From NCBI GenBank assembly GCA_020724805.1, contig DYGI01000001.1, forward strand, positions 175,157 through 239,156: DNA of 64,000 nt, written 5' to 3'. Source of the stretch: Candidatus Microgenomatus sp. Lineage in GTDB: Bacteria > Patescibacteriota > Minisyncoccia > UBA6257 > GWB1-50-10. A model generated the notes under the pieces. The model was not told the DNA's origin. It was given only the letters and a program-made list of their open reading frames with translations, and made no database searches. Positions 8,366-43,375 of this stretch are shown piece by piece; positions within the stretch are counted from its first letter, which is position 1, and each line of letters starts with the position of its first letter. Both the position numbers and the translations under genes were made by a program.

Positions 8366-8393
8366 GGTCGTAATACGTTAAAGACCAAATCAT

Positions 8394-8636: not shown

Positions 8637-8653
8637 TATTCGGCGCATTCAAG

Positions 8654-8680
8654 AAAACGCCCCTTGAGGGGCGTTTTCGT
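8654..8680 (+). terminator. rho-independent terminator
   Basis: aaaacgcccc-ttga-ggggcgtttt then cgttt. Confidence 0.6.
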
Positions 8681-8693
8681 TTATAATATTCGC

Positions 8694-9182
8694 ATGCTTA
8701 CGCTCGAAGAAATGCTCGTTCGTCTCGCGGTTGCGGTGGCGCTTGGTGCTATTGTCGGATTTGGTCGGGAAATGGCGGGAAAAGAAGCGGGGGTGAGGAC
8801 CGACATCATTGTGGCGGCGGGTGCGGCGCTTTTCACCGTCGCGGCACTTATGCTGCCTTATCTTATTGCGAGCTCTCCCGAGCATTTGAATGACATAATG
8901 GCACGAAACAGCGGGTTCCTTTCGCTTATCGGGAATGTGGTGGTCGGTATCGGTTTTCTCGGTGCCGGCATCATCGTAAAACAAGGGGTACACGTACGGA
9001 GCGTGACCACTGCGGCGACGGTGTGGTTTGTGGCGGCGCTTGGCGTGCTCTCTGGCCTTGGGCTTCTCCTTTTCGCCGGCATCGCGGGCGTAGCACTCAC
9101 TATTCTCCTCGCAATTTTAGGGAAGATAGATCTCAAGCGTGCGCTTGCGGAGGAAGGGCACGGCGCACATCGGGATTTGTAG
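8694..9182 (+). CDS. MgtC/SapB family membrane protein
   Basis: ORF 8664 trimmed to M11. MLTLEEMLVRLAVAVALGAIVGFGREMAGKEAGVRTDIIVAAGAALFTV matches the MgtC N-terminal signature. Confidence 0.65.
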   Translation: MLTLEEMLVRLAVAVALGAIVGFGREMAGKEAGVRTDIIVAAGAALFTVAALMLPYLIASSPEHLNDIMARNSGFLSLIGNVVVGIGFLGAGIIVKQGVHVRSVTTAATVWFVAALGVLSGLGLLLFAGIAGVALTILLAILGKIDLKRALAEEGHGAHRDL

Positions 9183-9186
9183 GAGC

Positions 9187-10482
9187 ATGAAATCTTTCTA
9201 CATGGATTACGCCGCGGCGACGCCGGTGGACCCTCGCGTATTTGGCGCGATGCGTCCGTATTTTGATATGAAGTTCGGGAACCCCGGCTCCCTCCATGCG
9301 CGCGGAGCGGAAGCTCTCGCCGCGCTTGATAGCGCGCGCGAAACGGTTGCGCACGCGATAGGGGAAGATTTTCGAAACGTGGTGTTCACTGCGTCCGCGA
9401 CGGAGGCGAATAATCTCGCGCTCCGTGGCGTGGTGCGCGGGTATAAAGACTTGGGTTCAGGGTCTAGGAAAAAAAATTCTCTAACCCCTAACCCCCACAC
9501 CCTAACTCCTCGGATCGTTGTTTCTGCGGTGGAGCATGATTCGGTACTTGAAACGGCGCGGGATATGGAACATGCGGGCGAGGCGGAAGTGGTAATAATT
9601 CCCGTCGATAAAAAAGGAGCGGTGGACCTCAAGAAGCTGGAAGCGGCGCTCGACGAAAGGACCGCGCTTGTGTCGGTGATGTACGTCAATAATGAACTTG
9701 GCACGGTGCAGCCGATAGCTGAGATTGCGGAAATCGTCCGCCGTCACAAGTCGCCAGTGAATGGTTATCCGTTATTTCACACCGATGCAGCGCAGGCGTT
9801 TCTATACTACCCATGCAATCTCAAAGAACTTGGAGTGGATCTGATGACGCTCTCCTCGCAAAAAATATATGGACCGAAAGGCGCAGGCGCGCTGATATTA
9901 GGGAATAGGGTTCAGGGTCTAGGGTCTAGAAAAGAGAGTTCCCTAATCCCGAGTCACTATGCTCTAGCCCCCATCCTTACGGGGGGCGGTCAGGAATTCA
10001 ATCTCCGTGCCGGTACGGAAAATGTGCCGGCGATAGTGGGGCTTGGTATTGCCGCGGGGCTCGCCGAAAAGGAGCGCTCAAAAAACTTTACCAGAACCGA
10101 AAAGGTTCGTGATGTTTTTGTGAGCGAGTTGAAACGCATGATTCCCGGCGCGGAAGAAAATGCACGAGGGGACGCGCCGCACATCGCAAATATCGCGTTC
10201 CCGGAAGGTATATCGGCGGAGGACCTCCTCGTGCTTTTCGACCGTGCGGACATCGCAGCGAGTCCTGGTGCGGCGTGCAGCGCGCGAGCGCTCACCCTCT
10301 CTCACGTGCTCCGCGCCATAGGAATTTCGGACGAGCGCATCACGCGGAGCATTCGCTTCAGTTTCGGCCGCGGTATCACCGAGAAAGACGCACGCGACGC
10401 GGCACGCGTAATCGGGAAAATCGTAACGTCGTTACCCGTTGCGAGCGGCGTTACCTTTTCAAGGAAAAATCGTAATATATAG
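9187..10482 (+). CDS. cysteine desulfurase (class V aminotransferase, IscS/NifS-like) carrying two in-frame repeat insertions
   Basis: ORF 9139 trimmed to M17 (SD aggag). MDYAAATPVDPRV, FTASATEANNLAL, LSSQKIYGPKGAGAL, GGGQEFNLRAGTENV, SPGAACSA align to IscS. Two segments (9451-9507, 9898-9972) are absent from canonical IscS. Confidence 0.8.
   Translation: MKSFYMDYAAATPVDPRVFGAMRPYFDMKFGNPGSLHARGAEALAALDSARETVAHAIGEDFRNVVFTASATEANNLALRGVVRGYKDLGSGSRKKNSLTPNPHTLTPRIVVSAVEHDSVLETARDMEHAGEAEVVIIPVDKKGAVDLKKLEAALDERTALVSVMYVNNELGTVQPIAEIAEIVRRHKSPVNGYPLFHTDAAQAFLYYPCNLKELGVDLMTLSSQKIYGPKGAGALILGNRVQGLGSRKESSLIPSHYALAPILTGGGQEFNLRAGTENVPAIVGLGIAAGLAEKERSKNFTRTEKVRDVFVSELKRMIPGAEENARGDAPHIANIAFPEGISAEDLLVLFDRADIAASPGAACSARALTLSHVLRAIGISDERITRSIRFSFGRGITEKDARDAARVIGKIVTSLPVASGVTFSRKNRNI
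9451..9507. repeat. palindromic TAGGG/CCCTAA-family repeat inserted in frame in the cysteine desulfurase (19 codons)
   Basis: ttgggttcagggtctagg-aaaaaaaattct-ctaacccctaacccccacaccctaact: left arm GGGTCTAGG, right arm CCTAACCC(n). Encodes LGSGSRKKNSLTPNPHTLT between the conserved GYK and RIVVSAVEH. Confidence 0.6.
9898..9972. repeat. second in-frame palindromic TAGGG-family repeat in the cysteine desulfurase (25 codons)
   Basis: ttagggaatagggttcagggtctagggtctag-aaaagagag-ttccctaatcccgagtcactatgctctagccccc. Shares gggttcagggtctagg with the first copy. Confidence 0.6.
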
Positions 10483-10512
10483 TAAAGTCGAAAAGGTGAG
10501 TATATTTATTTT

Positions 10513-11283
10513 ATGGACGAAAAAGTGAGAAGTTATCTCGGAGGTGCGGCGGTGATCGGTATTCTTGCGGTGTCGTATGCGGCGGTAGTGGGTGTGCGAA
10601 CGTATTCGCAGTCCATTGAACCGTCCTCTTTCCGGAGTTTTTCCGTGACGGCGGACGCGAAAGTGGTGGCGGTGCCCGATGTGGCGGCGTTCACGGCGAG
10701 CGTTATCACGGAGGGAGGTCTCGATCTCGGAGCGCTCCAGGAAGCGAATATCGAGAAAACGAACGCGGTCATTGCATACGTGAAAGATGAAGGAGTAGAC
10801 GAGAAGGATGTGAAGACGGAAGGGTACTCGGTGGAGCCGCGGTATCAGTATTACGGTTGCGAAACGGGCACATGTCCGCCCCCGCGTATTGTGGGATATA
10901 CGGTACGCCAGACCGTGTCCGTGAAGGTGCGTGATTTTGCGAAAGCGGGCGAGATATTGGGCGGCGTGGTGACGAAGGGAGCGAACTCGGTGTCGTCACT
11001 CTCGTTCACTATTGATGACCCTACCGAAGTGCAGGCCGAAGCGCGCGCCGAGGCGATTGAAAAGGCAAAAGCGAAAGCGAGAGTAATTGCGGACGAAGCA
11101 GGCTTCAACGTGGGCCGACTCCTCTCCATTGACGAGGGAGGATACGTGCCCCCGATGCCTTACTACTATCGCGAGGCATATGGTATGGGAGGCGCAGGTG
11201 ACGCGGCGAAAGTTGCCGCATCCATTGAACCGGGGTCGCAGGATGTTACCGTGACAGTGACACTTCGGTATGAAATTCGGTAA
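10513..11283 (+). CDS. SIMPL/DUF541-like periplasmic protein (26-kDa periplasmic immunogenic protein family), putative
   Basis: 256 aa, N-terminal TM/signal, beta-rich with Ala/Lys-rich helix (EARAEAIEKAKAKARVIADEAG), typical SIMPL-domain layout. Confidence 0.45.
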   Translation: MDEKVRSYLGGAAVIGILAVSYAAVVGVRTYSQSIEPSSFRSFSVTADAKVVAVPDVAAFTASVITEGGLDLGALQEANIEKTNAVIAYVKDEGVDEKDVKTEGYSVEPRYQYYGCETGTCPPPRIVGYTVRQTVSVKVRDFAKAGEILGGVVTKGANSVSSLSFTIDDPTEVQAEARAEAIEKAKAKARVIADEAGFNVGRLLSIDEGGYVPPMPYYYREAYGMGGAGDAAKVAASIEPGSQDVTVTVTLRYEIR

Positions 11284-12493
11284 AAGAGAGGTTCTTACAC
11301 TCATCGTAATTGCGGGAATAACGGGAGGCGCGATTGGAGGCGCGATGGCGCCTTCCTTCGTGTCCGCCAGTTTCCTGGACGATATAAAAACATTTTTCGG
11401 CATCCCGACGCCGGTACCCGAGGAGCCGAGTCCCGCGCCAAGTCCCACCGTACCTCTCTACAAGCCGGTCATCGATTATGAAGAAGCAGTGGTGAGCGCG
11501 GTAGAAACCGCAACGCCCTCAGTGGTGTCCATTGTTATCTCCAAAGATGTGCCGGTTATCGAACGATGCCCCTACGATCCCTTTGGCGATCTCCCTCCCG
11601 AGTTCCGCGATTTCTTCGGAGGAGGATTCGAAGGATTTTACGCGCCATGCGAGCGCGGTACCGAACGCCGTGAAGTAGGCGGCGGCTCCGGTTTCATCGT
11701 GTCTTCGGACGGGCTTGTGGTGACGAATAAACATGTGGTGGCTGACACATCCGCGGACTACACCGTATTTACGAGTGACGGAAAGAAATACGACGCGGAG
11801 GTGATAGCGCGCGATCCGTTGCAGGACCTCGCGGTTCTTAGAATCCCCGGGGCCGGATTTACGTCGGCGAAGCTCGGCAATTCCGACTCGTTGAAACTCG
11901 GTCAGACCGCGATTGCGATAGGGAATTCGCTCGGCGAGTTTAAAAACACGGTCTCGGTGGGCGTTATTTCCGGCCTTGCGCGGAACATCACCGCGTCTGG
12001 CGAAGGATTCGGCACCGAACTTATTCAGGGCGTCATCCAAACCGATGCGGCCATCAACCCAGGGAATTCCGGCGGCCCCCTTCTGAATCTCAAAGGGGAG
12101 GTGATAGGTATCAATGTGGCAACCGCCTCGGGCGCCGAGAATATCGGATTTGCCATTCCCGTAAACCGCGCGAAGCGCGCGATAGAGTCCGTGAAACGGA
12201 CCGGCACCATCGAGTCACCGTACCTTGGCATACGCTATGTGATGACCGAAGAAGGAGCGCGGGTGGGGGGCACGAAAGAAGGTCCCGGGGTTATCCCGAA
12301 TTCTCCGGCGGCTGCGGCTGGTATCCGCGCGGATGACCTTATAGAGAAAATGAATGGCGAGCAGTTGAACGAAGAAAACCCGCTCGGTGCGGTCATCCAG
12401 AAATATGGCGTAGGGGATACGGTGACGCTTACGGTGAAGCGGGGAGAGGAAACGCTCGCGATTCCCGTAACGCTCGGGAAGCGTCCCGAGTGA
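11270..12493 (+). CDS. HtrA/DegP-family serine protease with C-terminal PDZ domain
   Basis: GSGFIVSSDGLVVTNKHVV (His box), DLAVL (Asp), GNSGGPLLNLKGEVIGINVA (Ser box), then PDZ-like GIRADDLIEKMNGEQL. Confidence 0.85.
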   Translation: MKFGKREVLTLIVIAGITGGAIGGAMAPSFVSASFLDDIKTFFGIPTPVPEEPSPAPSPTVPLYKPVIDYEEAVVSAVETATPSVVSIVISKDVPVIERCPYDPFGDLPPEFRDFFGGGFEGFYAPCERGTERREVGGGSGFIVSSDGLVVTNKHVVADTSADYTVFTSDGKKYDAEVIARDPLQDLAVLRIPGAGFTSAKLGNSDSLKLGQTAIAIGNSLGEFKNTVSVGVISGLARNITASGEGFGTELIQGVIQTDAAINPGNSGGPLLNLKGEVIGINVATASGAENIGFAIPVNRAKRAIESVKRTGTIESPYLGIRYVMTEEGARVGGTKEGPGVIPNSPAAAAGIRADDLIEKMNGEQLNEENPLGAVIQKYGVGDTVTLTVKRGEETLAIPVTLGKRPE

Positions 12494-12593
12494 GCATTAG
12501 TCCCGTTAGAAGTCGCGCTCGTCCGCGATTGTACTCAATCGGGACGAGTCCCTCGCGGGACCGCTGACGCGGCTACTTCTAACGGGATTAGCA
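12494..12593. repeat. 100-bp compound palindrome directly after the htrA stop
   Basis: Outer arms gcattagtcccgttagaagtcgcg / cgcggctacttctaacgggattagc. Inner hairpins ctcgtcc..ggacgag and gtccc-tcgc-gggac. Confidence 0.5.
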
Positions 12594-12635
12594 CTCGAGG
12601 TATGGTATTGCTAATTCATCGATTTTCGCTATCAT
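12588..12635 (+). promoter_or_regulatory. CIRCE-like inverted repeat overlapping a sigma70-like promoter upstream of clpB
   Basis: TTAGCACTC-gaggtatgg-TATTGCTAA (9/9 and 7/9 versus CIRCE TTAGCACTC-N9-GAGTGCTAA). TTGCTA-16nt-TATCAT promoter overlapping the right half. Confidence 0.4.
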
Positions 12636-12642
12636 AGAAGGG

Positions 12643-12696
12643 CATAGGGGATAGGGTCTAGAAATTTTCCTAACCCCTAAACCCTAAACCCTAATT
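12643..12696. repeat. TAGGG-family repeat with telomere-like (CCCTAAA)n arm in the clpB 5' UTR
   Basis: gcataggggatagggtctag-aaattttc-ctaacccctaaaccctaaaccctaa, ending 4 nt before the clpB ATG. Confidence 0.6.
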
Positions 12697-12699
12697 CTC

Positions 12700-15345
12700 A
12701 TGCCAAACTTTCATCGTTTCACCCTAAAAGCACAGGAAGCGTTGCAGGCGGCACAGGAACTTGTGGCGCGGTTGAATCATGGAGAGCTGAAAGGGCTTCA
12801 CCTTCTTGCTGCGCTTCTTGAGGATGAGTCGACGCTCGTGCGTCCGCTTCTCACACGCGGCCAAGTGGATCTCGCGTCGCTTGAAACGGAACTCGACACA
12901 AAACTTGCCGCACTCCCGAAGATAGTTTCGGCACATGGTGCGGTGGGCCAACTTTATCTTTCAACCGAGCTTATGCGGGTGCTTGACCGCGCGGCGGAAG
13001 CGGCGCGGCGGCAGAAAGACGATTTTATTTCGTGCGAGCACCTCGTACTCGCACTCCTCGAAGTTCCGGGGCCCGCGTCGGAACTTTTGACACGAATGGG
13101 AGCTCGCCGCGACACGCTTTTTCGCACGCTCGCGGAGCTTCGGGGCTCCGTACGGGTTACCGACGAAACGCCGGAGACAAAATTCCAGGTGCTCGACAAA
13201 TATGCGGTGAACCTTACCGATAAAGCGAAAGAAGGAAAGCTGGACCCGGTTATCGGACGCGAGAATGAGCTTGAACGGGTGATGCAAATTCTCTCGCGCC
13301 GCACGAAGAACAACCCCATCCTTATCGGTGAACCAGGCGTGGGGAAAACCGCCATCGTGGAAGGATTGGCGCAGATGATCGTGGGCGGGAACGTTCCCGA
13401 ATCCCTGAAGGAAAAAGAGATCGTGATGCTCGACATCGGCTCGCTCATCGCCGGCACAAAATTCCGAGGAGAATTCGAGGATAGACTGAAGGCATTTTTG
13501 AAGGAGCTCCAAAATGCTCAAGGGCGCATCATCCTTTTCATCGACGAGATCCACATGATCGTAGGCGCCGGTGCCGCGGAAGGCGCGGTGGACGCCGCGA
13601 ACCTTTTGAAACCCGCGCTCGCGCGTGGCGAGCTTCACGCGATAGGCGCGACGACGTTCAAGGAATATCAGAAGCACATCGAAAAAGACCCCGCGCTCGA
13701 ACGCAGATTCCAGCCGGTCACGGTGGAGGAACCGACCCTCGAGGATTCCATTTCCATACTTCGGGGACTCAAGGAAAAATACGAAACGCATCACGGCCTT
13801 CGTATCACGGACGATTCGCTTGTGGCGGCAGTGGAACTTTCGGCGCGTTATATCACGGACCGATTTCTTCCCGACAAAGCGGTAGACCTTATCGATGAGG
13901 CGGCAGCGGCGCGGCGATTGGAATCCGACAGCGTACCTTCGGAACTTTCCAAAGTTCGCAAAGAACTTACGCGCCTCGAGATCGAGCGCGCGGCGCTCGA
14001 GAAGGAAGGGACGAAAGGTCCGCGCATAAAGGCGTTGCAAAAGGAAATTGCGAAACTCAAAGAACGCCACGAAGGACTCGCGGCGGAATGGCACACCGAG
14101 AAGTTGGTGTTTGAAAATCTTCACACGTCACGGAAGAAAATCGAGGATTTGAAACGGACGGCCGAAAAAGCGGAACGCGAGGGAGATTTGGAGAAGGTAG
14201 CTCAAGTTCTCTACGGCGAATTGCCGGAGGCGGAAAAGCAATACCACACGTTCGAGCGACGGTATGCGGGCGCGTCGAAAAAGCCCGCGAAGGGAAGCAA
14301 AGTGCCGCATTTCATACGGGAAACGGTGGAGAAAGAAGATATCGCCGCAGTGGTAGCGCGGTGGACCGGTATCCCGACCGCGAAGATGTTGGAGTCCGAA
14401 CTCGAAAAACTTTCTCGCATCGAAGACGTGCTCGAGAAGCGTGTGGTGGGACAGCGTGAAGCGGTCTCGGCCGTGGCGCGTGCGCTCCGCCGCTCAAGGG
14501 CGGGACTTGCGGACGAGGATAGGCCCGCGGGCTCATTCATGTTCCTGGGGCCCACCGGGGTGGGAAAAACGGAGCTTGCGCGCACTCTTGCGGAGTTCAT
14601 GTTCAACGATGAAAAGGCGCTTATCCGCATCGATATGTCGGAATATATGGAGCGACATGCGGTCGCGCGCCTCATTGGGAGCCCTCCGGGATATGTGGGG
14701 CACGAAGAGGGGGGACAATTGACCGAGCTGGTACGTCACCGGCCCTACTCGCTCATCCTTTTCGATGAGATAGAAAAGGCGCACCCCGAGGTCTTCAACA
14801 TTCTTCTCCAGATGTTGGACCACGGGCGTTTGACCGACGGCAAGGGGAAGCACGTGAATTTCAAGAACGCCATCATCATTCTCACTTCGAACGTCGGGAG
14901 TGAGTATTTCCGCGAGATGTCCGGGGTTGGTTTTGCGGCGGCGAACGAGGAAGAGTTCCTTCTTAAAGAAGAGCAATTTCGTGATAAGGTATGGGAGGCC
15001 CTCAAAGACACTTTCAAACCGGAATTTCTGAACCGTTTGGACGAGGTGGTTATATTCAACGCGCTTTCGCCGAAAGAAGTGGCGCGCATCGTAGATATCC
15101 AGCTCGCGCGTCTTGGGGTTCGGCTTGCGAAAAAAGGCATCACGCTTGCGGTGCGCCCGGAGGTACGCGAATATCTTGTGGCGCACGGATTCGACCCTGA
15201 TTATGGCGCGCGTCCGGTGAAGCGCCTCATCGAAAAAACCATCGTGGATGCGCTCGCGGACCGGATGGTAAAAGGCAATGTACCCCATGGAAAGAAAATT
15301 ACCGTTTCGCTTACCAAGTCAGACCGCGTGGCGGTCATCGGCTAG
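12700..15345 (+). CDS. clpB: ATP-dependent chaperone ClpB
   Basis: 881 aa. Clp-N repeats, two AAA+ modules (GEPGVGKTAIVEGLA; GPTGVGKTELARTLA), long middle coiled-coil, sensor-2 GARPVKRLIEK. Confidence 0.95.
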   Translation: MPNFHRFTLKAQEALQAAQELVARLNHGELKGLHLLAALLEDESTLVRPLLTRGQVDLASLETELDTKLAALPKIVSAHGAVGQLYLSTELMRVLDRAAEAARRQKDDFISCEHLVLALLEVPGPASELLTRMGARRDTLFRTLAELRGSVRVTDETPETKFQVLDKYAVNLTDKAKEGKLDPVIGRENELERVMQILSRRTKNNPILIGEPGVGKTAIVEGLAQMIVGGNVPESLKEKEIVMLDIGSLIAGTKFRGEFEDRLKAFLKELQNAQGRIILFIDEIHMIVGAGAAEGAVDAANLLKPALARGELHAIGATTFKEYQKHIEKDPALERRFQPVTVEEPTLEDSISILRGLKEKYETHHGLRITDDSLVAAVELSARYITDRFLPDKAVDLIDEAAAARRLESDSVPSELSKVRKELTRLEIERAALEKEGTKGPRIKALQKEIAKLKERHEGLAAEWHTEKLVFENLHTSRKKIEDLKRTAEKAEREGDLEKVAQVLYGELPEAEKQYHTFERRYAGASKKPAKGSKVPHFIRETVEKEDIAAVVARWTGIPTAKMLESELEKLSRIEDVLEKRVVGQREAVSAVARALRRSRAGLADEDRPAGSFMFLGPTGVGKTELARTLAEFMFNDEKALIRIDMSEYMERHAVARLIGSPPGYVGHEEGGQLTELVRHRPYSLILFDEIEKAHPEVFNILLQMLDHGRLTDGKGKHVNFKNAIIILTSNVGSEYFREMSGVGFAAANEEEFLLKEEQFRDKVWEALKDTFKPEFLNRLDEVVIFNALSPKEVARIVDIQLARLGVRLAKKGITLAVRPEVREYLVAHGFDPDYGARPVKRLIEKTIVDALADRMVKGNVPHGKKITVSLTKSDRVAVIG

Positions 15346-16018
15346 CGCGCTCGCCCTCGCGCTCATTTCGCTTTGGCTTGCGGCCGGGGAATTCGGGGTC
15401 GGCTCATTTGTCCTTTTCGCGCTTGCGCTCGGCGCATTGACGCTCCAATTTTCAGAATGGCGTCGCGTGCGATTCTCGTGGTATGCGCTTACGCTGGTGA
15501 GCGGTATATTGTTTTCTCGCGCGACCCCGATGCTTATGGCGCCGTGGTTCGAGGCGGCGCTTGTGGGCGCGCTTAGCGCACTTCTTTTTCTTTCCGCCGC
15601 GGCGCTTCGTGATCCGCACCGTATCATTCCCCGCGTGCTTACCGTGACGCTCACGCTCCTCGCCGCGTTCCTCTTTTTCCGCGATTCATCGTGGCTCACA
15701 TTCGCGGTGTTTATATTGGTTACGGCACTCACCGCACGCGATGAGGCGCGCTCATGGGGCGCGCTTCGGGTGGGGGAAGGGAAGCTCATGGGCGCCGCGG
15801 TGGCGCTTGTGGGCGCCGAACTCGCCGCGTTCATCGGTTTACTCCCCCTAGGGTCCGCGCGTGCAGCGGCGCTCGCCGCATTCGTGCTTCTTTTGGTCCG
15901 CGAGGGGCTTTCCGAAGCCCTCCAAGGCGGACTCCGCCCGGTGGTCCTGTTCCGCGGTCTCGCCGTGTTTTTTACGTGCGCGGTGCTTCTCTTTGCATCA
16001 GTACATTGGGGAGTCTAG
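15287..16018 (+). CDS. hypothetical polytopic membrane protein
   Basis: ORF 15278..16018 (246 aa), Ala/Leu-rich with at least 6 hydrophobic helices. Overlaps the clpB 3' end by about 60 nt in another frame, so the start is uncertain. Confidence 0.35.
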   Translation: MERKLPFRLPSQTAWRSSASALALALISLWLAAGEFGVGSFVLFALALGALTLQFSEWRRVRFSWYALTLVSGILFSRATPMLMAPWFEAALVGALSALLFLSAAALRDPHRIIPRVLTVTLTLLAAFLFFRDSSWLTFAVFILVTALTARDEARSWGALRVGEGKLMGAAVALVGAELAAFIGLLPLGSARAAALAAFVLLLVREGLSEALQGGLRPVVLFRGLAVFFTCAVLLFASVHWGV

Positions 16019-16040
16019 GGACTAGGGGATAGGGTATAGT
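16015..16040. repeat. TAGGG-rich inverted repeat, left flank of the four-helix-bundle gene
   Basis: tctagggactaggggatagggtatag. Partner at 16396-16428 in inverse orientation. Confidence 0.5.
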
Positions 16041-16046
16041 GAAAGA

Positions 16047-16406
16047 GTGAAAAGCCACCGGGAGTTGGAAGTTTGGAAAAGAAGCATGGAACTCGTAAAG
16101 AAAGTCTACGAGCTTACCAGTAAATTTCCCCCATCAGAGACGTGCGGAATCATAAGTCAAATCCGCCGTGCCTCCGTTTCTATTCCTTCGAATATCGCAG
16201 AAGGATATCAGCGTGGCTCTCGAAAGGAATATTTGAATTTCATAAGAATCTCTTTTGGATCTGGTGCAGAGCTCGAAACACAGCTTGAGTTGGCAAAAGA
16301 GCTTTCGTTAGCGCCCTCGAAGGATTTTGAGGTCCCAGAGCAACTTCTCAATGAGGCTATGCGGATGCTGAATGGACTTATCCACAGCCTCGCTTCTAGG
16401 CCCTAG
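16047..16406 (+). CDS. four-helix-bundle protein (23S rRNA intervening-sequence protein family)
   Basis: 119 aa, GTG start. ELEVWKRSMELVKKVYELTSKFPPSETCGIISQIRRASVSIPSNIAEGYQRGSRKEYLNFIRISFGSGAELETQLELAK matches the conserved core of this family. Confidence 0.8.
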   Translation: MKSHRELEVWKRSMELVKKVYELTSKFPPSETCGIISQIRRASVSIPSNIAEGYQRGSRKEYLNFIRISFGSGAELETQLELAKELSLAPSKDFEVPEQLLNEAMRMLNGLIHSLASRP

Positions 16407-16428
16407 CCCCTATACCCCAGTCCCTATC
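16396..16428. repeat. TAGGG-rich inverted repeat, right flank of the four-helix-bundle gene
   Basis: ctaggccctagcccctataccccagtccctatc. Reverse complement gatagggactggggtataggggctagggcctag mirrors the left flank modules. Confidence 0.5.
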
Positions 16429-16652
16429 TTCTTCCGTAACTACGAGGGGGATTTCTTCGTTTTATCTGATGAGCGCGGAAAAACTTGAGTTTTTCGGCGT
16501 TTCCTAGTACCTTAGTCAGTAGACAGTGTCCGTAGCTTTCAGTGTGAGGCTGAAAGATATGGGACCGGGAGAAAGTGCCGCAGAACGCACGAAATGAACG
16601 TTCCGCGGTGTCGCCTTATCGTAAGGCGGGCTTTCTTTCGTGGTTCCATCAC

Positions 16653-16687
16653 CCTCGCACCGAAATGCGAGGTTTTCTGTTTTTTCC
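16653..16687 (+). terminator. rho-independent terminator/attenuator within the long leader upstream of the giant surface-protein gene
   Basis: cctcgca-ccgaaa-tgcgagg then ttttctgttttttcc. Confidence 0.55.
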
Positions 16688-16874
16688 AATCAATATCGTC
16701 CTTTTCCCGTCCTCCGTGCCTCCGATCCTCACTAGGTTGGTACACGTCGAAACAGGGTGGGGGAAGCATCCAGAAACTCGTAAAGGTCGAAACATACGAA
16801 AATATGTTTGGTCGATTATCCTTCGACAGACTCAGGATAACCCTGAGTGAAATCGAAGGGTTACAACTACAGAA

Positions 16875-19800
16875 ATGAACAAATCATTCAAGAAAGTTGC
16901 GTCCATAGGGCTCTCGCTTTCAACAGCGGTGTACCTCTTTGGAGCCGCGGCGATTCCTGCAGGGGCACAAACCACTGCGGATCTCCAGGCCCAAATTGCG
17001 GCCCTTTTGGCGCAGATCAATGCATTGCAATCCCAACTCGCGGCGCAGTCTGGCGGTGGTGCCGTTGCGTCTTCGTACAGTTTTACCCGCAACCTCACGG
17101 TGGGTTCGACTGGCGCTGACGTGCGTGCCCTCCAACAGTGGCTGAACGCGAATGGGTATCAAGTTTCCGCGAGCGGCGCCGGTAGCCCCGGCAACGAGAC
17201 GCAGTACTTCGGTCCCGCGACTCGCACAGCCCTCGCAAAGTATCAGGCAGCGGTGGGAATTTCCCCTGCGGCAGGGTACTTCGGTCCTATCACTCGCGCA
17301 CGCGTAAGCGCCGCGGGCGGTACGACCACCCCAGGCACGGGGCCGGTGGTTATCCCTTCATCGGGTCTCCAGGTGAGCCTCGCGTCTGACAGTCCTTCCG
17401 CGGCCGTGGCGCCTCTCGGTGCCGCCGGCGTGGTGTTTGCGAAGTTCAATGTGGCCGGCAGCGGTACGTTGGACGGCATCACCTTCAAGCGGATGGGCGT
17501 TGGTGGCACCGGCGACTTCGCCGCAAGCGGTATTTACCTCTACGAGGGAAACACTCGCTTGACGACGGGCCGGAGCATCAACTCCACGAGCCACGAGGTC
17601 TCGTTCCTTAACCTCGGTCTTTCGATCTCTGGCGTGCGGACCCTCTCGCTTGTCGCGGACATTTCGTCCTCCGGCCAAGCGGGGAACCGCAACCACTTCG
17701 AGTTGGTCTCCGCGTCCGGTACGCCGACCCCTTCGGGGACGGTGATCGGCCGTGATATCACTCTCGCGGGCCAGTCTGTCGGAAGCGTCACCGCGACGAG
17801 CGGTGCGGCACCTTCCAACCCCAAAGTGGGTCAGGTTGGCGCCAAAGTCGCCGAGTTCATGCTTCAAGCAGGCTCGACGGAAGACATTGAGATCCGCCGT
17901 ATTGCACTCACGGAAGGCGGCTCCATCGCGAACTCGTACCTCACGAACTTCCAGTTGAAGTACGCGGGGAACGTAATCGCGACGGCCTCCGGTGTGGGCG
18001 CGAAGGATCTTGTGTCGTTCGAAATGGCGACCCCGTTCCTCTTGGAAAAGGGTCAACAGCGCACGTTCGAGGTGTACGCTGACATCGGTGGTGGCGCACG
18101 TTCGGCAGACACGATCGTGTTCTACTTCGACAGCAAGGCGGACATCTACGCGATCGGTAAGACCTACGGATACCCCGTGGATCCGACGATCACCGCGCTT
18201 GACGCTACTTCGGACGGTGACACGCTGACCCTCTCGGGCGGCGACATCACCATCACCTTCAACGGTCCTATTGCGGGCGACGTAGCGCTCCGCGGTCAGG
18301 ATGTGACGGTGTATGACTTCACGATTGCGTCCCTCAATAACATTGAGATCCGCAACCTTCGTTTCCACGCTACCACGACTGGTATGACGGCGAACGAAGG
18401 CTTCACGGATTTCAAGGTATGGGATGCGACGGCGAACAGTGTTGTCACGAGCGCGACCGACGTTACGACCTCGACGGATGTGACCTTCACGGATGTGTTG
18501 AACATCAGCGCGGGTCAGTCGAAGAGGTTTAAGGTGACGGTGGACATCGACTCGGACAACGACGACACGACGGACACGCTCCTTGTGTCGCTCCTTGCGT
18601 TCCAAGCGAACGACATTCGGAACTTGGACAACAACACGTACGTGGCAACCTCGGTTATCGTGCCGAACAGCACGGTTTCGGGGAACACGATGACGGTGAA
18701 GGCGCCGGCGTTGGACATCCAACTCTCGGCAACGCCGTCCTCGCAGACGTATGTGAAGGGTACGCAGAACGTGGACTTGGTCGGGTTGAGCTTCCGGGCA
18801 GTATCTTCAAATGTCCGCTTGAGCTCGGTCCGCATCACAGCAACCGCGTCCTCGGGCACCCTGACCTCGGGCGAAGTCACCAGCCTCGGCCTCTACGACG
18901 GCGCGAGCTTGGCGGGGAACTCCACCGTAGAATCGCTCGACACGTCGAACTTGAACGCGACGTTCGACAACATCAACGTGGTTATCCCGATGGGTACGAC
19001 GAAAGTGTTCACCGTTCGCGGTAACATCTCGTCCGACACCACGGTGGGTGACACGTTCTACTTCTACCTCGCGACTGCGACAGCGAACGATGTGACTGCC
19101 TACGACTCCGAAGGGAACGCGGTAAACCTCCAAGGGACCGCGGCGAACTCCGGTGGTACGGTCATCGCATCGGTGGCGAACGTGGGTGACGTGACGGTGG
19201 CGAAAGCCGCCGACGACTCCGACTCCGAAGCCGGCATCATAGTGGCGGGTCGTGAGCAGACGCTCGCGAAGTTCCGCTTCACGGCGGCGAACGAGGCGGT
19301 GACAGTGAACAAGCTCCAGCTCCTTGTGGTGCCGACGAGCTCCGCAACGGCCACTTCCTCGGCTTCGGCTGATGAGGTACCGGTGGTGAAGCTTTACGAT
19401 GGTTCCAACCAGATCGGTAACACGTCCGGGTACACGGTCCAGGCATCGGGTGACAACTCCGGTGTCGTCGTGATCGAGAACCTCGGATGGGGTATCGGTA
19501 AGGATGCTTCGAAGACCCTCACGGTAAAGGGAGTGTTGAACTCCACTTCCGGTGGGGCGGACTCTGGCGCTTCGGTGTACGTAAGCGTGATGAGCTCCGG
19601 CTTTGAGGCACAGGGCGCGACAGCGAAGGACACCACGATCACGGCTGCGACGGCAAACCAGAAGGTGGTCTACAAGACGAAGCCCACCATCTCGGTTGCG
19701 GCAGGCGACACTACGCTTACGACCGGCCTCCGCAAGGTGATGAAATTCACCGTGGCGGCGGACTCGGCTGAGCAGGTGGCGTGGAAGAAGATGCAACTTG

Positions 19801-20303
19801 CGGTTTCGATGACTGGCGCGACCATGACCGCGGCCTCCGCGGCTCCTGGCACGACCGGCACCATCCAGATTAAAGAGGTTGGTGCGTCTTCGAACCTCAA
19901 CGTGGCAACCGGGTACAGCGGCTCGACCGCGACTGCTTCGACTACCGACGCAATCGTGGGCGGCAGCACTGGATACGTGACCTTTATCCTCAATGCTGAG
20001 GAGGTCATTCCGGCGGGCGGCAGCAAATCGTACGAGGTTTATCTCACGTTTGCGAACCTCACCTCCGGTTCCGGCAACTCTTCCGCGGTGGTGAACCTCC
20101 ACCGTCAGGAATCGACGGTGGTAGCCGCAACGACGTACGCGAATGCTGAAAACAGCGACGCGAACGGCGTTGAGAACGGTTCACCTTCGTTCATCTGGTC
20201 CGACTACTCGACTGTGGGGCACAGCGAGGCGACGTCGGCCGACTGGGCGAACGGCGTCTTTGTGAAGGAACTTCCGTCTACGTCCTTCACGCTCTCGAAC
20301 TAG
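16875..20303 (+). CDS. giant secreted/cell-surface protein with N-terminal peptidoglycan-binding domain and long Thr/Ser/Gly/Val-rich beta-repeat region
   Basis: 1142 aa. Signal peptide then coiled coil. STGADVRALQQWLNANGY...FGPATRTALAKYQAAVGI matches PG_binding_1. Remainder low-complexity beta-rich, adhesin/S-layer-like. Confidence 0.7.
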   Translation: MNKSFKKVASIGLSLSTAVYLFGAAAIPAGAQTTADLQAQIAALLAQINALQSQLAAQSGGGAVASSYSFTRNLTVGSTGADVRALQQWLNANGYQVSASGAGSPGNETQYFGPATRTALAKYQAAVGISPAAGYFGPITRARVSAAGGTTTPGTGPVVIPSSGLQVSLASDSPSAAVAPLGAAGVVFAKFNVAGSGTLDGITFKRMGVGGTGDFAASGIYLYEGNTRLTTGRSINSTSHEVSFLNLGLSISGVRTLSLVADISSSGQAGNRNHFELVSASGTPTPSGTVIGRDITLAGQSVGSVTATSGAAPSNPKVGQVGAKVAEFMLQAGSTEDIEIRRIALTEGGSIANSYLTNFQLKYAGNVIATASGVGAKDLVSFEMATPFLLEKGQQRTFEVYADIGGGARSADTIVFYFDSKADIYAIGKTYGYPVDPTITALDATSDGDTLTLSGGDITITFNGPIAGDVALRGQDVTVYDFTIASLNNIEIRNLRFHATTTGMTANEGFTDFKVWDATANSVVTSATDVTTSTDVTFTDVLNISAGQSKRFKVTVDIDSDNDDTTDTLLVSLLAFQANDIRNLDNNTYVATSVIVPNSTVSGNTMTVKAPALDIQLSATPSSQTYVKGTQNVDLVGLSFRAVSSNVRLSSVRITATASSGTLTSGEVTSLGLYDGASLAGNSTVESLDTSNLNATFDNINVVIPMGTTKVFTVRGNISSDTTVGDTFYFYLATATANDVTAYDSEGNAVNLQGTAANSGGTVIASVANVGDVTVAKAADDSDSEAGIIVAGREQTLAKFRFTAANEAVTVNKLQLLVVPTSSATATSSASADEVPVVKLYDGSNQIGNTSGYTVQASGDNSGVVVIENLGWGIGKDASKTLTVKGVLNSTSGGADSGASVYVSVMSSGFEAQGATAKDTTITAATANQKVVYKTKPTISVAAGDTTLTTGLRKVMKFTVAADSAEQVAWKKMQLAVSMTGATMTAASAAPGTTGTIQIKEVGASSNLNVATGYSGSTATASTTDAIVGGSTGYVTFILNAEEVIPAGGSKSYEVYLTFANLTSGSGNSSAVVNLHRQESTVVAATTYANAENSDANGVENGSPSFIWSDYSTVGHSEATSADWANGVFVKELPSTSFTLSN

Positions 20304-20330
20304 TACCGAAAGGTATTCGTTTGGAAAGCC

Positions 20331-20357
20331 AAAAAGGGCCCTCACGGGCCCTTTTTG
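20331..20357 (+). terminator. rho-independent terminator after the surface-protein gene
   Basis: aaaaagggccc-tcac-gggccctttttg. Confidence 0.65.
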
Positions 20358-20376
20358 TTTCTGCTAGAATGGGCGT

Positions 20377-22656
20377 GTGCTGAAAGTCGCAAAATGGTGT
20401 CTTTTTCTTACCGCGCTCACCCCTCTCATCATTACGAACGAGGTTTATTTTCCCTTTGTGTTGGGAAAGATGGTGTGGTATCGGTCGCTTACCGAGCTTG
20501 CGCTCGCGCTTCTCTTCGGGTGGCTTGCGTGGGCAATCATCACGAAACATGAAGTTGCAACGCCGCTCCTCCCTGGTTTCACGCGGGTTAAAGATTTTCT
20601 TAAGAGCCCCACTACCGTGGCGACGCTCGTTTTTTTTGTTTCTTTGGCATTAAGCGTCATTTTTGCGGTGAACGGATACCGCGCATTTTGGGGAGACATC
20701 GAACGCGCCGAGGGATTTTTCGGCATGCTCCACTATCTTGGGTTTGCGGTCGCGGCACTTCTCCTTTTTGAGCGGAAGGATTGGACAACTTATTTCAAGT
20801 TCTCAGTGGGGGTAGGATTTGTCCTCGCGTTCTACGCGTTTCTCCAATGGGCAGGCGTGGAATCGTTCCCGTTCGCACGCCCCTCCCAGCCACGTGCAGA
20901 TTCATTCATAGGGAATGCCGCATTCCTTGCGACTCACATGTTCTTTTTCGCGCTTTTCGCCTGGTTTCTTACGAAGGAGCCGTCCAAATGGTGGCGCATC
21001 GCGGCATTTCTCGCGATTCCGGTCAGCATACTTATAATGTTTTTCACTGGTACCCGCGGTGCGATACTCGGTGTCGGCGCGGCCATCGTTGCGTTCCTCG
21101 TCGGCGTGCTCATTCGGAGCGAGCGATGGCGAGGAATTTCGCTCCGCATGGGCGCTTCCGTTTTGCTCGCGGTGATCGCGGTTGGCACGGTTGGTTTTTG
21201 GGTAACGCGTGACGCGGCTTTATGGCAGAAAGTTCCCGGGTTGGACCGGCTCGCGCGTACCGCAACACTCGATAAAGCCGACGCATCCACGCAGGTGCGG
21301 CTTATCACTTGGCGCGTTTCCTGGGAAGCATTCAAAGAAAAACCCGTGTTCGGGTGGGGTCCCGAGAACTACCTTGTGGCATATGAAAAGCATTACGACC
21401 CCGACTACGCCATTTATGGAGAAACGTGGCTTGACCGTGCGCACAACAAATTTTTTGACCTTCTTGTAATGCAAGGAATTGTGGGTGTGCTCACGTACAT
21501 TGCTCTTATAATTACGCTCCTCGCCACCGCATTTCGCCGCACAAAACATCTTTTCGTGCCGCTCTTTGTGTTTGTGGTCGGCTATAGCGTTCAAAACTTG
21601 GTGCTTTTCGACCAAATCGTCTCGTACGCGACATTTTTCGCGCTTCTCGCGTTTGTCATTCACGAATCGACGCCGCTTGTGGGCGAAGCGGTTGTACCCG
21701 TTTCTCCAAGAGCGCGATTGGGTATTGCAAGCGGAGGAGTGGTGCTCGTCGTATTGATGGGAATATCGCTCTATGCATGGAATGCGATGCCGTATGCGCA
21801 GGCAAAAGCGCTTTTGGAATCCCCGAAACTCGGTGATATTCAAAAAGTGATTGGACGCGTGAAAGATGGTTTTTACCCCTACAACTTCGCGCAGTATACC
21901 CTGCGGGGGCAGGCTATCGACACGGTGTACCTCGACCAGTTCTTTTACCACGAGCCCTATCGCACGAAGGAGAGTTTCAAGCCGCTTGGCGAACTCCTTC
22001 TTGAAGGAATGGATGAGATCATCCGGCGCGAACCATACGATGTGCGCATTATGCTCCGCTATGTGGAAATGCTCGATGCACTTTCGCGCGAGGACGAATC
22101 GCTCTACCCGAAGATGGAAAGCGTGCTCCGTGTGGCGCGGGAAATCGCGCCTCACCGACAAGAAGTGCTCTATCACCTTGCCGCAAACCTTGCGAAGCAG
22201 GGGAAGGTCGAAGAAGGGCTCGCGGTGGCTCGCGAGGCGGTCGCGCTTTCTCCCGAGGTTCCCCGCGCTCATTTCTATCTTTCGCTCATTCTTGCGGCTG
22301 CCGGAGAAGACGAAGAAGGCAAGCAAGAGATCCTTCGTGCGGAAGAACTTAGCCCCGACTTCTCCGGATTCTTGAGCCATGACCACAATACATTCATGAT
22401 GCTCTACCAAAGCTGGGGAATGCGCGACAAAGTGGCCGCGCTTGCGCTCCGGAGCGCTCAAGGGCCTGTGCGGTTTTCGTTCAATACTGAGTATTACTAT
22501 TTCGGGCTCGGTTTTTTCGCGGAACAAAGAGATGCCGAGAGTTTCATCGCGATTGCCGATTATCTTAAAGAAATTGATAAAGGGAATGCGGAAAGCTTGG
22601 ATATACTTATTGATCTTGCGCGTAATGGTAATTGGAACATTATCGAAACATTATGA
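20377..22656 (+). CDS. O-antigen ligase-like (Wzy_C) polytopic membrane protein fused to C-terminal TPR repeats
   Basis: 759 aa, GTG start. About 11 TM helices with MFFTGTRGAILGVGAAIV (Wzy_C-like); C-terminal about 250 aa helical TPR-like. Confidence 0.65.
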   Translation: MLKVAKWCLFLTALTPLIITNEVYFPFVLGKMVWYRSLTELALALLFGWLAWAIITKHEVATPLLPGFTRVKDFLKSPTTVATLVFFVSLALSVIFAVNGYRAFWGDIERAEGFFGMLHYLGFAVAALLLFERKDWTTYFKFSVGVGFVLAFYAFLQWAGVESFPFARPSQPRADSFIGNAAFLATHMFFFALFAWFLTKEPSKWWRIAAFLAIPVSILIMFFTGTRGAILGVGAAIVAFLVGVLIRSERWRGISLRMGASVLLAVIAVGTVGFWVTRDAALWQKVPGLDRLARTATLDKADASTQVRLITWRVSWEAFKEKPVFGWGPENYLVAYEKHYDPDYAIYGETWLDRAHNKFFDLLVMQGIVGVLTYIALIITLLATAFRRTKHLFVPLFVFVVGYSVQNLVLFDQIVSYATFFALLAFVIHESTPLVGEAVVPVSPRARLGIASGGVVLVVLMGISLYAWNAMPYAQAKALLESPKLGDIQKVIGRVKDGFYPYNFAQYTLRGQAIDTVYLDQFFYHEPYRTKESFKPLGELLLEGMDEIIRREPYDVRIMLRYVEMLDALSREDESLYPKMESVLRVAREIAPHRQEVLYHLAANLAKQGKVEEGLAVAREAVALSPEVPRAHFYLSLILAAAGEDEEGKQEILRAEELSPDFSGFLSHDHNTFMMLYQSWGMRDKVAALALRSAQGPVRFSFNTEYYYFGLGFFAEQRDAESFIAIADYLKEIDKGNAESLDILIDLARNGNWNIIETL

Positions 22657-24590
22657 GCGGACCGGAAGCTTTTCCATTTAAAATAGCGCGAGGGTTTCTC
22701 TACCTTTCGGCGCTTTATGTGGCGATTGTGACGCCTTCCACTCTTTTCCCCTTCATTGTGGGAAAGTACGCATGGTTTCGCGGTACGGTGGATTTGGCGC
22801 TTATCGCGTTCGCGCTCGGTCTCCTCTTTTACGATGCGAAAGGAGAATGGGGGATGCGGCTCAAAGAAGTTTTTCGCAAGCCGCTTGTTGTTGCGGTTGG
22901 AATATTTACACTCGCATTCCTTCTCGCGGGATTTTTCGGTGTAGACCCTGCGATGTCTTTCTGGTCCAACTTCGAAAGGGGAGAAGGAGGTATTCAACTG
23001 CTCCACCTTTTCGTGTTTTCCATGCTCCTCGTCGCTCTTTTTCGTGACGAGAAAGAATGGCGTCGTTTTTTTGTATGGGCGCTCACCGGCGGAGCGCTTT
23101 CCATTCTTTATGGATTTTTTGCCGCATGGGACGTGCCCGGGTTCATAGGTGCGCGATTCGCCGAGTCGGGGTTTCGTTTTCAGGCATCCATCGGTAACCC
23201 CGCGTATGTGGCGGCGATGGCGATATTTTTGGCGTTCTACGTGGGGTATCTCCTTTGGTCCCGGTATCGCACGCGGCTTTTTGTTTCTGTAGGGGCATGG
23301 GCATTATGGGGTCTCCTTGTGTTCTTCGGGGCGGCCTTTATACTCGCCGCGACCCGCGGGGCGTTCCTTGGATTTCTCGCGGGACTACTCGTGGGGACGG
23401 GGTATTTCGTGTTTATGCACCGCGCATGGCGGAGATGGTTTGTGGCGGGAGCGATAGCCCTTGTCCTTACGGTCGGGACAATGGTGTTCTTCAAAGATTC
23501 GCAGTTCGTGAAGTCGATTCCGGGGTCGCGTATTTTCGACATATCGCTCACTGCGGAAACTTTCCAGCACCGGGCGATTATGTGGGGCATGGCGCTCGAA
23601 GGGTGGAAAGAGCGCCCGCTTCTTGGGTGGGGACCGGAAAATTACATTCAAGTATTTGATAGGAAACTGGATCCCGCATATTTCAAGCCGGCCGAAGGAT
23701 TCGGTGCATGGTTCGACAGGGCGCACAGTATTTATTTCGACTATCTTGCGGAGACGGGAGCCCTCGGCTTTCTCGGGTTTGTAGGCATATTTGCGGTGCT
23801 CGGAGTGCACCTGTTTCGCCGAGAAGAAAAGATGGAGGAATCCATGCTTCCGCGTGCGCTTATAATTGGCGCAATCGTGGCGTATCTCGTGCAAGGCATC
23901 GCACTTTTTGACGTACTTCCCATTTACTACAATCTTTTTGTGGTGCTTGCGTTCAGCGCGTTTTATTTTTCATCTCCAACCCTGAAACCTCACGCTTCCG
24001 TTTCTCTATCGTTTCTACGCACCTTTTTTGGCGTCATTCTTATATTATTGTCCGCGGCATCGCTCATTTTTGGCGTATATGCGCCAGTATCACGAGCGCG
24101 CGCCTATATTGGTGCGCTTCAGACTATGTCTTCCGTGAACAGTATTGAGGGTTTCAAGGCTCACTTTAACCCTGCAATTAAGCATTGGTCTCCGGTGGGA
24201 GGAGAAGAGGTGGTTAAATTTCTCGGAAACGATATTTTAAATATCATCGCGGGAGGGAATCAGGACGAGCAAGGGGCGCGGGCGCTCGTTACTTATATTG
24301 AACCCTATATTTTCAAGGACAATGTGCGCCATCTTATCCTTGGAGGAAACCTCTATAAGGTGCTTTGGGAAAAGTATGGGAAGAGGGAAGATGATTATCG
24401 GCGCGCCGAAGGGTACTACGCGGCGGCGTTTCGCATTGGCCCCGGACTTCCGCCGGTGCTTTATTCCTTGCTCGATCTCGCGCTGAAAGGCGGTGAAGCG
24501 GAAAAGGCGCAAGCAGTGGGGGCAGAAATTCTCCGTTTGTGGCCTGATGCGGCGGACGTTGTGACCGCGCTCCAGTCTACCTCCGAGTGA
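22653..24590 (+). CDS. O-antigen ligase-like membrane protein with C-terminal TPR repeats (paralog of the preceding gene)
   Basis: Start set at ATGA overlap with the upstream stop. Same architecture (GAAFILAATRGAFLGFLAGLLV; WGPENYIQVFDRK compared with WGPENYLVAYEKH in the paralog). Confidence 0.65.
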   Translation: MSGPEAFPFKIARGFLYLSALYVAIVTPSTLFPFIVGKYAWFRGTVDLALIAFALGLLFYDAKGEWGMRLKEVFRKPLVVAVGIFTLAFLLAGFFGVDPAMSFWSNFERGEGGIQLLHLFVFSMLLVALFRDEKEWRRFFVWALTGGALSILYGFFAAWDVPGFIGARFAESGFRFQASIGNPAYVAAMAIFLAFYVGYLLWSRYRTRLFVSVGAWALWGLLVFFGAAFILAATRGAFLGFLAGLLVGTGYFVFMHRAWRRWFVAGAIALVLTVGTMVFFKDSQFVKSIPGSRIFDISLTAETFQHRAIMWGMALEGWKERPLLGWGPENYIQVFDRKLDPAYFKPAEGFGAWFDRAHSIYFDYLAETGALGFLGFVGIFAVLGVHLFRREEKMEESMLPRALIIGAIVAYLVQGIALFDVLPIYYNLFVVLAFSAFYFSSPTLKPHASVSLSFLRTFFGVILILLSAASLIFGVYAPVSRARAYIGALQTMSSVNSIEGFKAHFNPAIKHWSPVGGEEVVKFLGNDILNIIAGGNQDEQGARALVTYIEPYIFKDNVRHLILGGNLYKVLWEKYGKREDDYRRAEGYYAAAFRIGPGLPPVLYSLLDLALKGGEAEKAQAVGAEILRLWPDAADVVTALQSTSE

Positions 24591-43352: not shown

Positions 43353-43375
43353 AAGAAAATGCAGGGGTTGACTTT

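Follow-up and report, generated by a model that had tools for sequence, protein, structure and literature searches.

Downstream of clpB, a 64,000-nucleotide stretch of Candidatus Microgenomatus sp. contig DYGI01000001.1 (positions 175,157 to 239,156; hereafter the window) carries a small gene enclosed between inverted arrays of tandem heptamers, and this gene cassette is the subject of the present analysis. The 119-amino-acid product of the open reading frame (ORF) at 16047–16406 matched PF05635 (23S_rRNA_IVP) over profile positions 1–106 of 106 (E 5e-37, 126.7 bits, cutoff 33.8) and TIGR02436, "four helix bundle protein," at 121.1 bits (cutoff 24), and its residues 2–116 aligned with PDB 2GSC, the solved pentameric four-helix bundle of XCC0516 (E 1.4e-23). 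A preliminary description of this DNA, made from the letters without database searches, had named it a four-helix-bundle gene of the rRNA intervening sequence (IVS) type, and the profile and structure matches confirmed this assignment. Its further statement that such genes are classically encoded inside 23S rRNA IVSs was right about the family but does not hold as a rule; it reflects the history of discovery, and none of the 40 related loci that were checked lay in rRNA. Likewise, no rRNA was found in the 64-kb window, and the cassette is flanked by protein genes. The public gene call begins at ATG 16086 and yields 106 amino acids; the GTG start at 16047 was preferred because homologues of 119–120 amino acids align from residue 1 and cover residues 1–119. 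The PF05635 family comprises 21,129 clusters at 50% identity (E ≤ 1e-3), and PADLOC gave no defence-system match. The features of the locus are as follows.

16016–16434, plus strand: whole cassette, comprising left arm, ORF, right arm and TTCTTC tail, as set by the empty sites of relatives L120 and L121
16016–16039, no strand assigned: left (5′) arm, 3.4 tandem heptamers TAGGGAC TAGGGGA TAGGGTA TAG, with a lag-7 identity of 0.76
16047–16406, plus strand: PF05635/TIGR02436 four-helix-bundle gene (IVP, "S23p" or Avd-like), GTG start, 119 amino acids, assigned by profile and structure matches
16378–16393, plus strand: 3′-terminal ORF segment TTATCCACAGCCTCGC, persisting as a scar in gene-less relatives and identical in relative L134
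16396–16428, no strand assigned: right (3′) arm, 4.7 tandem heptamers CTAGGCC CTAGCCC CTATACC CCAGTCC CTATC, holding the ORF stop
15278–16018, plus strand: upstream host gene for a lineage-specific protein of 246 amino acids, ending in the left arm and syntenic with relatives
16442–16468, plus strand: host terminator-like hairpin directly 3′ of the cassette, its motif conserved in relative L122

Alignment showed that the two arms are inverted repeats, with 83% complementarity over 24 nt; offset by 7 nt, they also pair in another register at 76%. The inverted flanks on which the preliminary description had staked its case are therefore real. When the RNA of 16005–16440 was folded, the arms paired into a closing stem with the ORF in its loop, in both the minimum-free-energy and the centroid folds (z −2.1). 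We also computed a bracket score, obtained by locally aligning the 120 nt that precede the start codon with the reverse complement of the stop region, and the cassette scored 14 against 7.3 in shuffled sequences (z 6.2). Owing to the bulges in their stems, the heptamer hairpins escaped an ungapped hairpin scan of the window.

Judged against the empty orthologous sites, the cassette extends from 16016/16019 to 16434, bordered on the left by the stop codon of the 246-amino-acid host ORF and on the right by the host motif CGTAAC. Its size of approximately 416–419 bp agrees with the cassette-like unit of about 410 bp described earlier, and its GC content is 47.6%, versus 56–60% in the flanks. Both arms coincide with the end of a reading frame: the host ORF 15278–16018 stops at the first TAG of the left arm, and the stop codon of the cassette ORF (16404–16406) falls within the right arm. 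The conserved 246-amino-acid ORF separates clpB from the cassette; the earlier placement of the gene between clpB and a giant surface-protein gene was thus correct for the region, but not as direct adjacency to clpB. A plus-strand promoter-like site was sought at the cassette and none was found, and the hairpin at 16442–16468 is likely the end of a clpB–orf246 transcript that carries the cassette. Rfam detected only tRNAs in the window at the gathering threshold, and nothing in 15900–16900 at E ≤ 1.

History of the locus and gene-less copies

Seven relatives were found through the neighbouring 246-amino-acid protein (45–64% identity), one of them annotated as Candidatus Jorgensenbacteria, and all shared the gene order MgtC, cysteine desulfurase, SIMPL, HtrA, ClpB, 240-amino-acid ORF and PG_binding giant. 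The cassette gene was absent from all seven, whereas an eighth contig, L134, carried an intact orthologous cassette with gene and repeats; the comparison of synteny that the preliminary description had proposed thus revealed a gene that is not uniformly present. In L120 and L121 the site was empty, reading stop-aat-CGTAAC without the TTATCCACAGCCTCGC segment. Measured against these two sites, the cassette shows no duplication around the whole unit; the one repeat seen is TTCT, which flanks the right arm. In L089, L086, and L085 we found a scar roughly 25 nt long, TTATCCACAGCC(C)CGC…TTCTT, which consists of the last 16 nt of the coding region of the window ORF before the right arm, followed by the post-arm tail. 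The scar matched 16378–16393 at 15 of 16 positions in L089, a match reached by none of 2,000 shuffles, and at 12 of 12 in L086, and it read TTATCCACA in L085. The sequence TTATCCACA (16378–16386) is part of the conserved 3′ end of the ORF and is kept in all three scars; it matches the consensus DnaA box. L087 retained both a homologous left arm that includes the start codon and a right arm, but the loop between them, about 100 nt long, showed no alignment with the ORF. The L122 site held a different G/C hairpin.

The L134 cassette encodes a protein 66% identical to that of the window, ends in the same GGACTTATCCACAGCCTC 3′ end, and has a left arm of at least 10 heptamers, so that arm length differs between the two intact copies. 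Downstream of it lie the same host sequences as in the window and the orthologous giant gene. Comparison of the two ORFs gave a nonsynonymous divergence (dN) of 0.26 and a synonymous divergence (dS) of about 2.2, i.e., dN/dS of about 0.12. Because an intact orthologue occupies the same site in L134, the cassette is old in the clade and vertically inherited, and a recent insertion was rejected. Thus, the cassette is under purifying selection in the two lineages that kept it and has decayed or been lost several times elsewhere.

The window also contains the heptamer unit away from the gene. Four TAGGG/CCCTA clusters were counted versus 0.06 expected; besides the cassette there are three complete TAGGG/CCCTA hairpins and one half copy, none of them assigned a strand.

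9451–9509: gene-less TAGGG/CCCTA hairpin, in frame in the cysteine desulfurase gene, adding 17 residues
9898–9972: second gene-less hairpin, in frame in the cysteine desulfurase gene, adding 14 residues
12643–12694: gene-less hairpin 5 nt before the clpB start codon, resembling the cassette minus its ORF
43325–43355: solitary left-arm-like half element tagggtctagtgaag with a TAGGG-type unit

Aligned with the solved NFS1/IscS structures, the cysteine desulfurase showed gaps of 17 and 14 residues that coincide exactly with the hairpins at 9451–9509 and 9898–9972, and in both hairpins the unit whose TAG would be in the host frame reads CAG. The content of these two sites differs among relatives. 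TAGGG-type heptamers occur at both sites in the cysteine desulfurase loops of L087 (1629–1700 and 2061–2130), and the second site of L086 (4694–4760) has in-frame tandem 9-mers (GGACCAATG-like), with a separate 30-residue insertion in addition. The two loops look like hot spots of repeat insertion or expansion.

The inner boundaries of the gene-less hairpins in the window (…GGGTCTAG-AAA…TTCT-CTAACCCC…) resemble those of a cassette from which the ORF has been deleted. The hairpin at 12643–12694 folds at −24.9 kcal/mol (z −3.2) and is missing from the htrA–clpB spacers of L086 and L087, which measure 59–61 nt. A long palindrome unrelated to it, ttagtcccgttagaagtcgcg … cgcggctacttctaacgggattag, lies at 12497–12591 in the same spacer of the window, and together the two stretch this spacer to 207 nt.

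The bracket across the PF05635 family

We then examined 80 loci of the nearest relatives of the query (45–57% identity), taken from species-representative genomes, mostly metagenome-assembled genomes (MAGs), with ORF boundaries set by rule. They came from many lineages of the candidate phyla radiation (CPR) and from Bacteroidota, Acidobacteriota, Proteobacteria, Planctomycetota, Chlorobiota, and others. At a threshold of ≥13, the bracket score identified inverted flanks at 61 of the 80 PF05635 loci, compared with only 4 of the 224 genes that neighbour them there (Mann-Whitney p 5e-31). The best repeat period of the arms was 7 in 42 of the 80 loci and 8 in about 20, and was equal on both sides of the gene, whereas in control segments the periods were spread without preference for 7 or 8. 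The bracket is therefore a signature of the PF05635 family and its norm, rather than a local oddity. Copies on viral contigs were rare (11 loci) and mostly bracketed too.

The units themselves varied from locus to locus, with TAGGGNN, TTAGCTN, GTGAGTA, GGTGAAA, and GTCACGC among them, and two PF05635 paralogues only 1.2 kb apart on one contig had arms of different units. The sharing of arm 6-mers climbed with protein identity, from 0.013 at 40–50% identity to 0.36 at ≥70%, and because arm sharing tracks protein identity, gene and arms behave as a single heritable unit. Additional arrays or hairpins of the locus's own unit were found within 3 kb at 22 of the 80 loci. A metagenome scan with one TAGGG-hairpin pattern returned 30 matches, nearly all of them true heptamer hairpins, on contigs of 33–69% GC. 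One distant PF05635 gene (37% identity; L118:893–1213, minus strand of that locus) was flanked by direct copies of cttttaactttataacttcgcYATG, a non-inverted arrangement unlike that of the rest of the family.

Both neighbours were co-directional with the cassette gene in 64 of the 80 loci, and the cassettes sit very tightly in operons: the gap to the upstream neighbour had a median of 44 nt and that to the downstream neighbour one of 39 nt, which fits little beyond the arms. The 5′ arm was C-poor, with G exceeding C in 63 of 67 loci, and contained 245 stop triplets (168 TAG, 39 TAA, and 38 TGA). It closed all three reading frames in 39 of 69 loci, while 10.1 were expected from composition-preserving shuffles. 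The stop codon of the upstream co-directional ORF lay inside the arm in 40 of 64 loci and no more than 15 nt away in 10 more, a pattern to which the window conforms. A unit of 7 or 8 nt that includes a stop inevitably blocks every frame once it is present three times in tandem, which would explain periods that are not multiples of three. Among arm mismatches, G-U-compatible pairs (70) were not in excess over A-C-type pairs (83). Since G-U mismatches are not in excess, the complementarity between the arms looks like a DNA-level property rather than one selected in the sense RNA. The polarity with the G-rich arm upstream was also considered as a signal of gene orientation and was dropped, because a hairpin that begins with G reads alike on both strands.

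Origin of the cassette and related systems

These data establish an IVS-type gene-in-hairpin cassette outside rRNA, typical of the PF05635 family, with gene-less derivatives in the same genome. Most probably, although with only moderate confidence, we regard it as an old, vertically inherited and repeatedly lost IVS-like foldback cassette at the 3′ end of the clpB operon, accompanied by derivatives that resemble transposable elements of the miniature inverted-repeat type (MITEs). Such a foldback cassette would hold a PF05635 gene for a protein of about 120 amino acids in its loop and inverted arrays of a stop-containing heptamer (TAGGGNN) as its arms. With no promoter of its own, it would be transcribed by read-through from clpB–orf246 to the terminator at 16442. 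The arms may act as bidirectional all-frame stop arrays that halt ribosomes arriving from either side; the host ORF would end in the arm because ribosomes would be stopped there in any frame, and the cassette ORF could then be translated by re-initiation a few bases past the arm. Pairing of the arms would give a stem 24 bp or more in length that RNase III might cleave, by analogy with rRNA IVSs. The gene-less hairpins would be MITE-like derivatives formed by internal deletion, and the element might spread or persist by a DNA-level foldback mechanism in which the pentameric protein may bind the repeat arrays.

Several points weigh against this foldback interpretation. No transposase, integrase, or reverse transcriptase was found in the 10 kb to each side, nor is there a clear target-site duplication around the unit as a whole, so the proposal invokes mobility and names no enzyme for it. 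This copy is old and vertically inherited, and the locus therefore shows no recent movement. RNase III cleavage, read-through, and re-initiation are argued by analogy. The lack of a G-U excess (70 versus 83) gives no sign of selection on a sense-RNA stem, and a recognition motif that is poor in C and contains TAG could have produced the enrichment of stops as a side effect. Furthermore, the family-wide sample represents the query's nearest relatives (45–57% identity), mostly MAGs, with rule-set ORF boundaries.

Some of these points would suit a normal gene of the host, whose four-helix-bundle protein works for the cell and whose repeats form a regulatory stem that controls only the mRNA, through stability, RNase III processing, or occlusion of the ribosome-binding site, and were never mobile. 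The cassette is ancestral at the locus and its ORF is under strong purifying selection, there is neither a transposase nor a clear target-site duplication, and the arms of different family members lack the shared sequence expected of a site bound by a transposase. We nevertheless consider this explanation unlikely, given that gene-less hairpins of the same unit are dispersed in the genome, two of them within coding sequence, that the gene was repeatedly lost at the orthologous site, that the arms lack the wobble bias expected from RNA-level selection, that the GC content of the cassette is below that of its flanks, and that a gene-plus-stem unit also occurs within rRNA genes (PMC4990558, PMC11270868). 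Alternatively, the hairpins could have come first, as products of slippage or as protein-binding arrays at gene junctions, with the PF05635 ORF as a mobile passenger that homes into their loops. ORFs at the tips of rRNA helices 25 and 45 provide a precedent, gene-less hairpins far exceed gene-bearing ones (186 arrays in Xanthomonas; PMC4692102), insertion sequence (IS) elements lie between paired arrays in Geobacter (PMC2700814), and unrelated hairpins occupy the orthologous site in L122 and L085. This order of events is quite unlikely in our judgement: the arms co-diverge with the protein, paralogues on one contig bear different units, and the gene-less hairpin of L087 retains the inner left boundary of the cassette together with a start codon, which points to internal deletion.

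Two further explanations were given little weight. The protein weakly matches Avd, the accessory subunit of diversity-generating retroelements (DGRs), through bAvd (26.6 bits), DivGenRetAVD (24.9 bits), and PHROG 3206, "Avd protein of DGR"; it is nonetheless very improbable that the gene is a remnant or orphan of such an element, since the scores fall below the cutoffs (PF22296, 26.6 versus 40 bits; NF033474, 24.9 versus 80 bits), no reverse transcriptase (RVT domain) occurs among the genes within 10 kb either side, and no direct repeat of ≥40 nt that could serve as a template or variable repeat was found in 8000–24000. DGR membership was therefore rejected. With arms this short, and no more than 83% complementarity across 24 nt, a chance match of G-rich and C-rich sequence could be considered; the probability of this is negligible in view of the z of 6.2 against shuffles, the mere 4 of 224 control genes scoring as high, and the same architecture in 61 of 80 relatives and in the orthologue of L134.

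The foldback cassette has its closest relatives in kind in the ORF-bearing IVSs of 23S rRNA. In Coxiella burnetii, the IVS in helix 45 carries tandem heptamers 5′ of the S23p ORF, their copy number varies among strains, and RNase III excises the IVS (PMC4990558); ORF-bearing insertions are also described in the 16S and 23S rRNAs of CPR bacteria (PMC11270868). As in the 23S rRNA IVSs of Leptospira and C. burnetii, a PF05635 ORF is looped out by terminal inverted repeats, has no promoter of its own, and is sporadically distributed. The cassette differs in its position, at the 3′ end of a protein-coding operon instead of helix 25 or 45, and in its arms, which carry stops in all frames and terminate a host ORF. 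RNase III excision is demonstrated for the rRNA IVSs only and would apply to the cassette by analogy.

Resemblances to transposon-like systems are more partial. REPIN-RAYT systems (REPtrons) consist of a single-copy Y1 (HUH) transposase gene with inverted flanks of a palindrome of about 25 nt and of dispersed gene-less hairpins. The cassette is similar in that its gene is flanked by an inverted repeat that is also dispersed without the gene, repeat and gene forming matched families; however, its protein is a four-helix bundle matching PF05635 only and not a Y1 enzyme, its arms are tandem 7–8-mers, and some copies lie in frame within genes. Rickettsia palindromic elements and bacterial MITEs are short palindromes that encode no transposase and can insert in frame at positions tolerated by the protein fold. 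The gene-less copies at 9451–9509 and 9898–9972 are like the Rickettsia elements in being palindromes translated in frame in a conserved gene and absent from its homologues, but they are built from a tandemly repeated 7-mer and have a gene-bearing "parent" form. Compared with an autonomous IS, the cassette has as its only ORF the 119-amino-acid four-helix bundle and encodes no transposase. Avd shares with the cassette protein a homologous four-helix-bundle fold and the background of a pentameric nucleic-acid-binding family; the subthreshold scores and the lack of a reverse transcriptase and of template and variable repeats set the cassette apart from the Avd of DGRs. Eukaryotic foldback transposons have long inverted arms of short tandem subrepeats and a loop that is sometimes coding, and most of their copies are non-coding. 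The likeness is one of form only, as they belong to another domain of life and are unrelated in sequence.

Arrays similar to the cassette arms have been interpreted otherwise in other bacteria. Those of GGGAATC in Xanthomonas and of GGGGAYT, the short tandemly repeated repetitive (STRR) type, in Nostoc were read as G-quadruplex (G4) repeats (PMC4692102), and octamer arrays of Geobacter metallireducens as "global regulator binding sites" (PMC2700814). Like the cassette arms, they are tandem 7–8-mers, often in convergent inverted pairs, and lie at tight gene junctions and inside genes. Xanthomonas array #15 (GGGAATC ×4) overlaps the start of XCC0516, the PF05635 protein of solved structure (PMC4692102). 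Neither paper mentions PF05635 genes; the arrays are read there as G4 or regulator sites (PMC4692102, PMC2700814). In Table S4 of the G. metallireducens study, many class 1 paired octamer arrays have IS110 or IS481 transposase genes between or beside them (PMC2700814), which suggests that array-type hairpins there are insertion targets of other mobile elements. In a figure legend, a large CRISPR-association screen names "23S rRNA IVP" among the domains associated with CRISPR arrays (PMC10910872), and arms made of tandem repeats could explain that link as a side effect of repeat finding.

No link between PF05635 genes and flanking heptamer arrays was found in open-access papers and preprints, and an earlier description elsewhere is possible. 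The family-wide foldback bracket, the stop-array property, and the gene-less derivatives go beyond the descriptions that were found, and the locus itself is a new PF05635 member. Recurrence of the gene-in-hairpin design across many phyla suggests a widespread, largely undescribed selfish-element-like cassette. It is tempting to go further and to propose, tentatively and with some doubt, that PF05635 genes mark a class of foldback elements in bacteria that is very large and has gone unrecognised. Its autonomous form would be the ORF enclosed by inverted arrays of a stop-containing 7–8-mer, and the pentamer would act on its own arrays as a factor for mobility or maintenance. ORF-less rRNA IVSs, cyanobacterial STRR sequences, Xanthomonas GGGAATC "G4" pairs, Geobacter "regulator sites," and CPR in-frame hairpins would then be special cases of these elements or non-autonomous derivatives.

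The function of the ORF in rRNA IVSs has been in question since 1993, in a family of about 21,000 clusters at 50% identity. An ORF that almost always travels with co-diverging inverted arrays of 7–8-mers, in which the upstream host gene ends, gives the PF05635 protein a candidate substrate, its own array. The question thereby becomes testable in cultivable hosts, with Xanthomonas (XCC0516), Flavobacterium, Nostoc, and Geobacter as candidates. It also offers one possible explanation for repeat classes that were separately read as G-quadruplexes, regulator sites, and STRRs. For annotation, the in-frame hairpins are a caution that short insertions in CPR proteins can derive from repeats.

Neighbouring sequences

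As listed, the 246-amino-acid ORF shares 68 nt with the 3′ end of clpB (15278–15345), and the public call of 243 amino acids shares 59 nt with it; because this shorter call still overlaps clpB, the true start may lie further downstream. On the other side, a conserved non-coding stretch of 470 nt separates the cassette from the gene for the 1142-amino-acid PG_binding_1 protein. Within it, 16484–16690 was 72–88% identical to relatives (82–88% in L086 and L089), compared with only 50–60% for the flanking proteins. In its alignment, the hairpin GCTTTCAGTGTGAGGCTGAAAG carries compensatory changes, a variable insert is enclosed by a long stem, and 16653–16672 forms an intrinsic terminator; from these sequence features we consider the segment a candidate small RNA or leader with no Rfam match. 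Further along, a motif of about 75 nt, CGTGCCTCCGATCCTCACTAGGTTGGTCACACGTCGAAACAGGGTGGGGGAAGC, at 16730–16800 upstream of the PG_binding_1 gene was near-invariant in six of six relatives and also had no Rfam match; it displayed no covariation, because its sequence hardly varies. Just 5′ of the ATG of the giant gene, at approximately 16840–16885, a palindromic insertion of about 45 nt, tccttcgacagactcaggataaccctgagtgaaatcgaagggtta, was present in this genome only among the six aligned.

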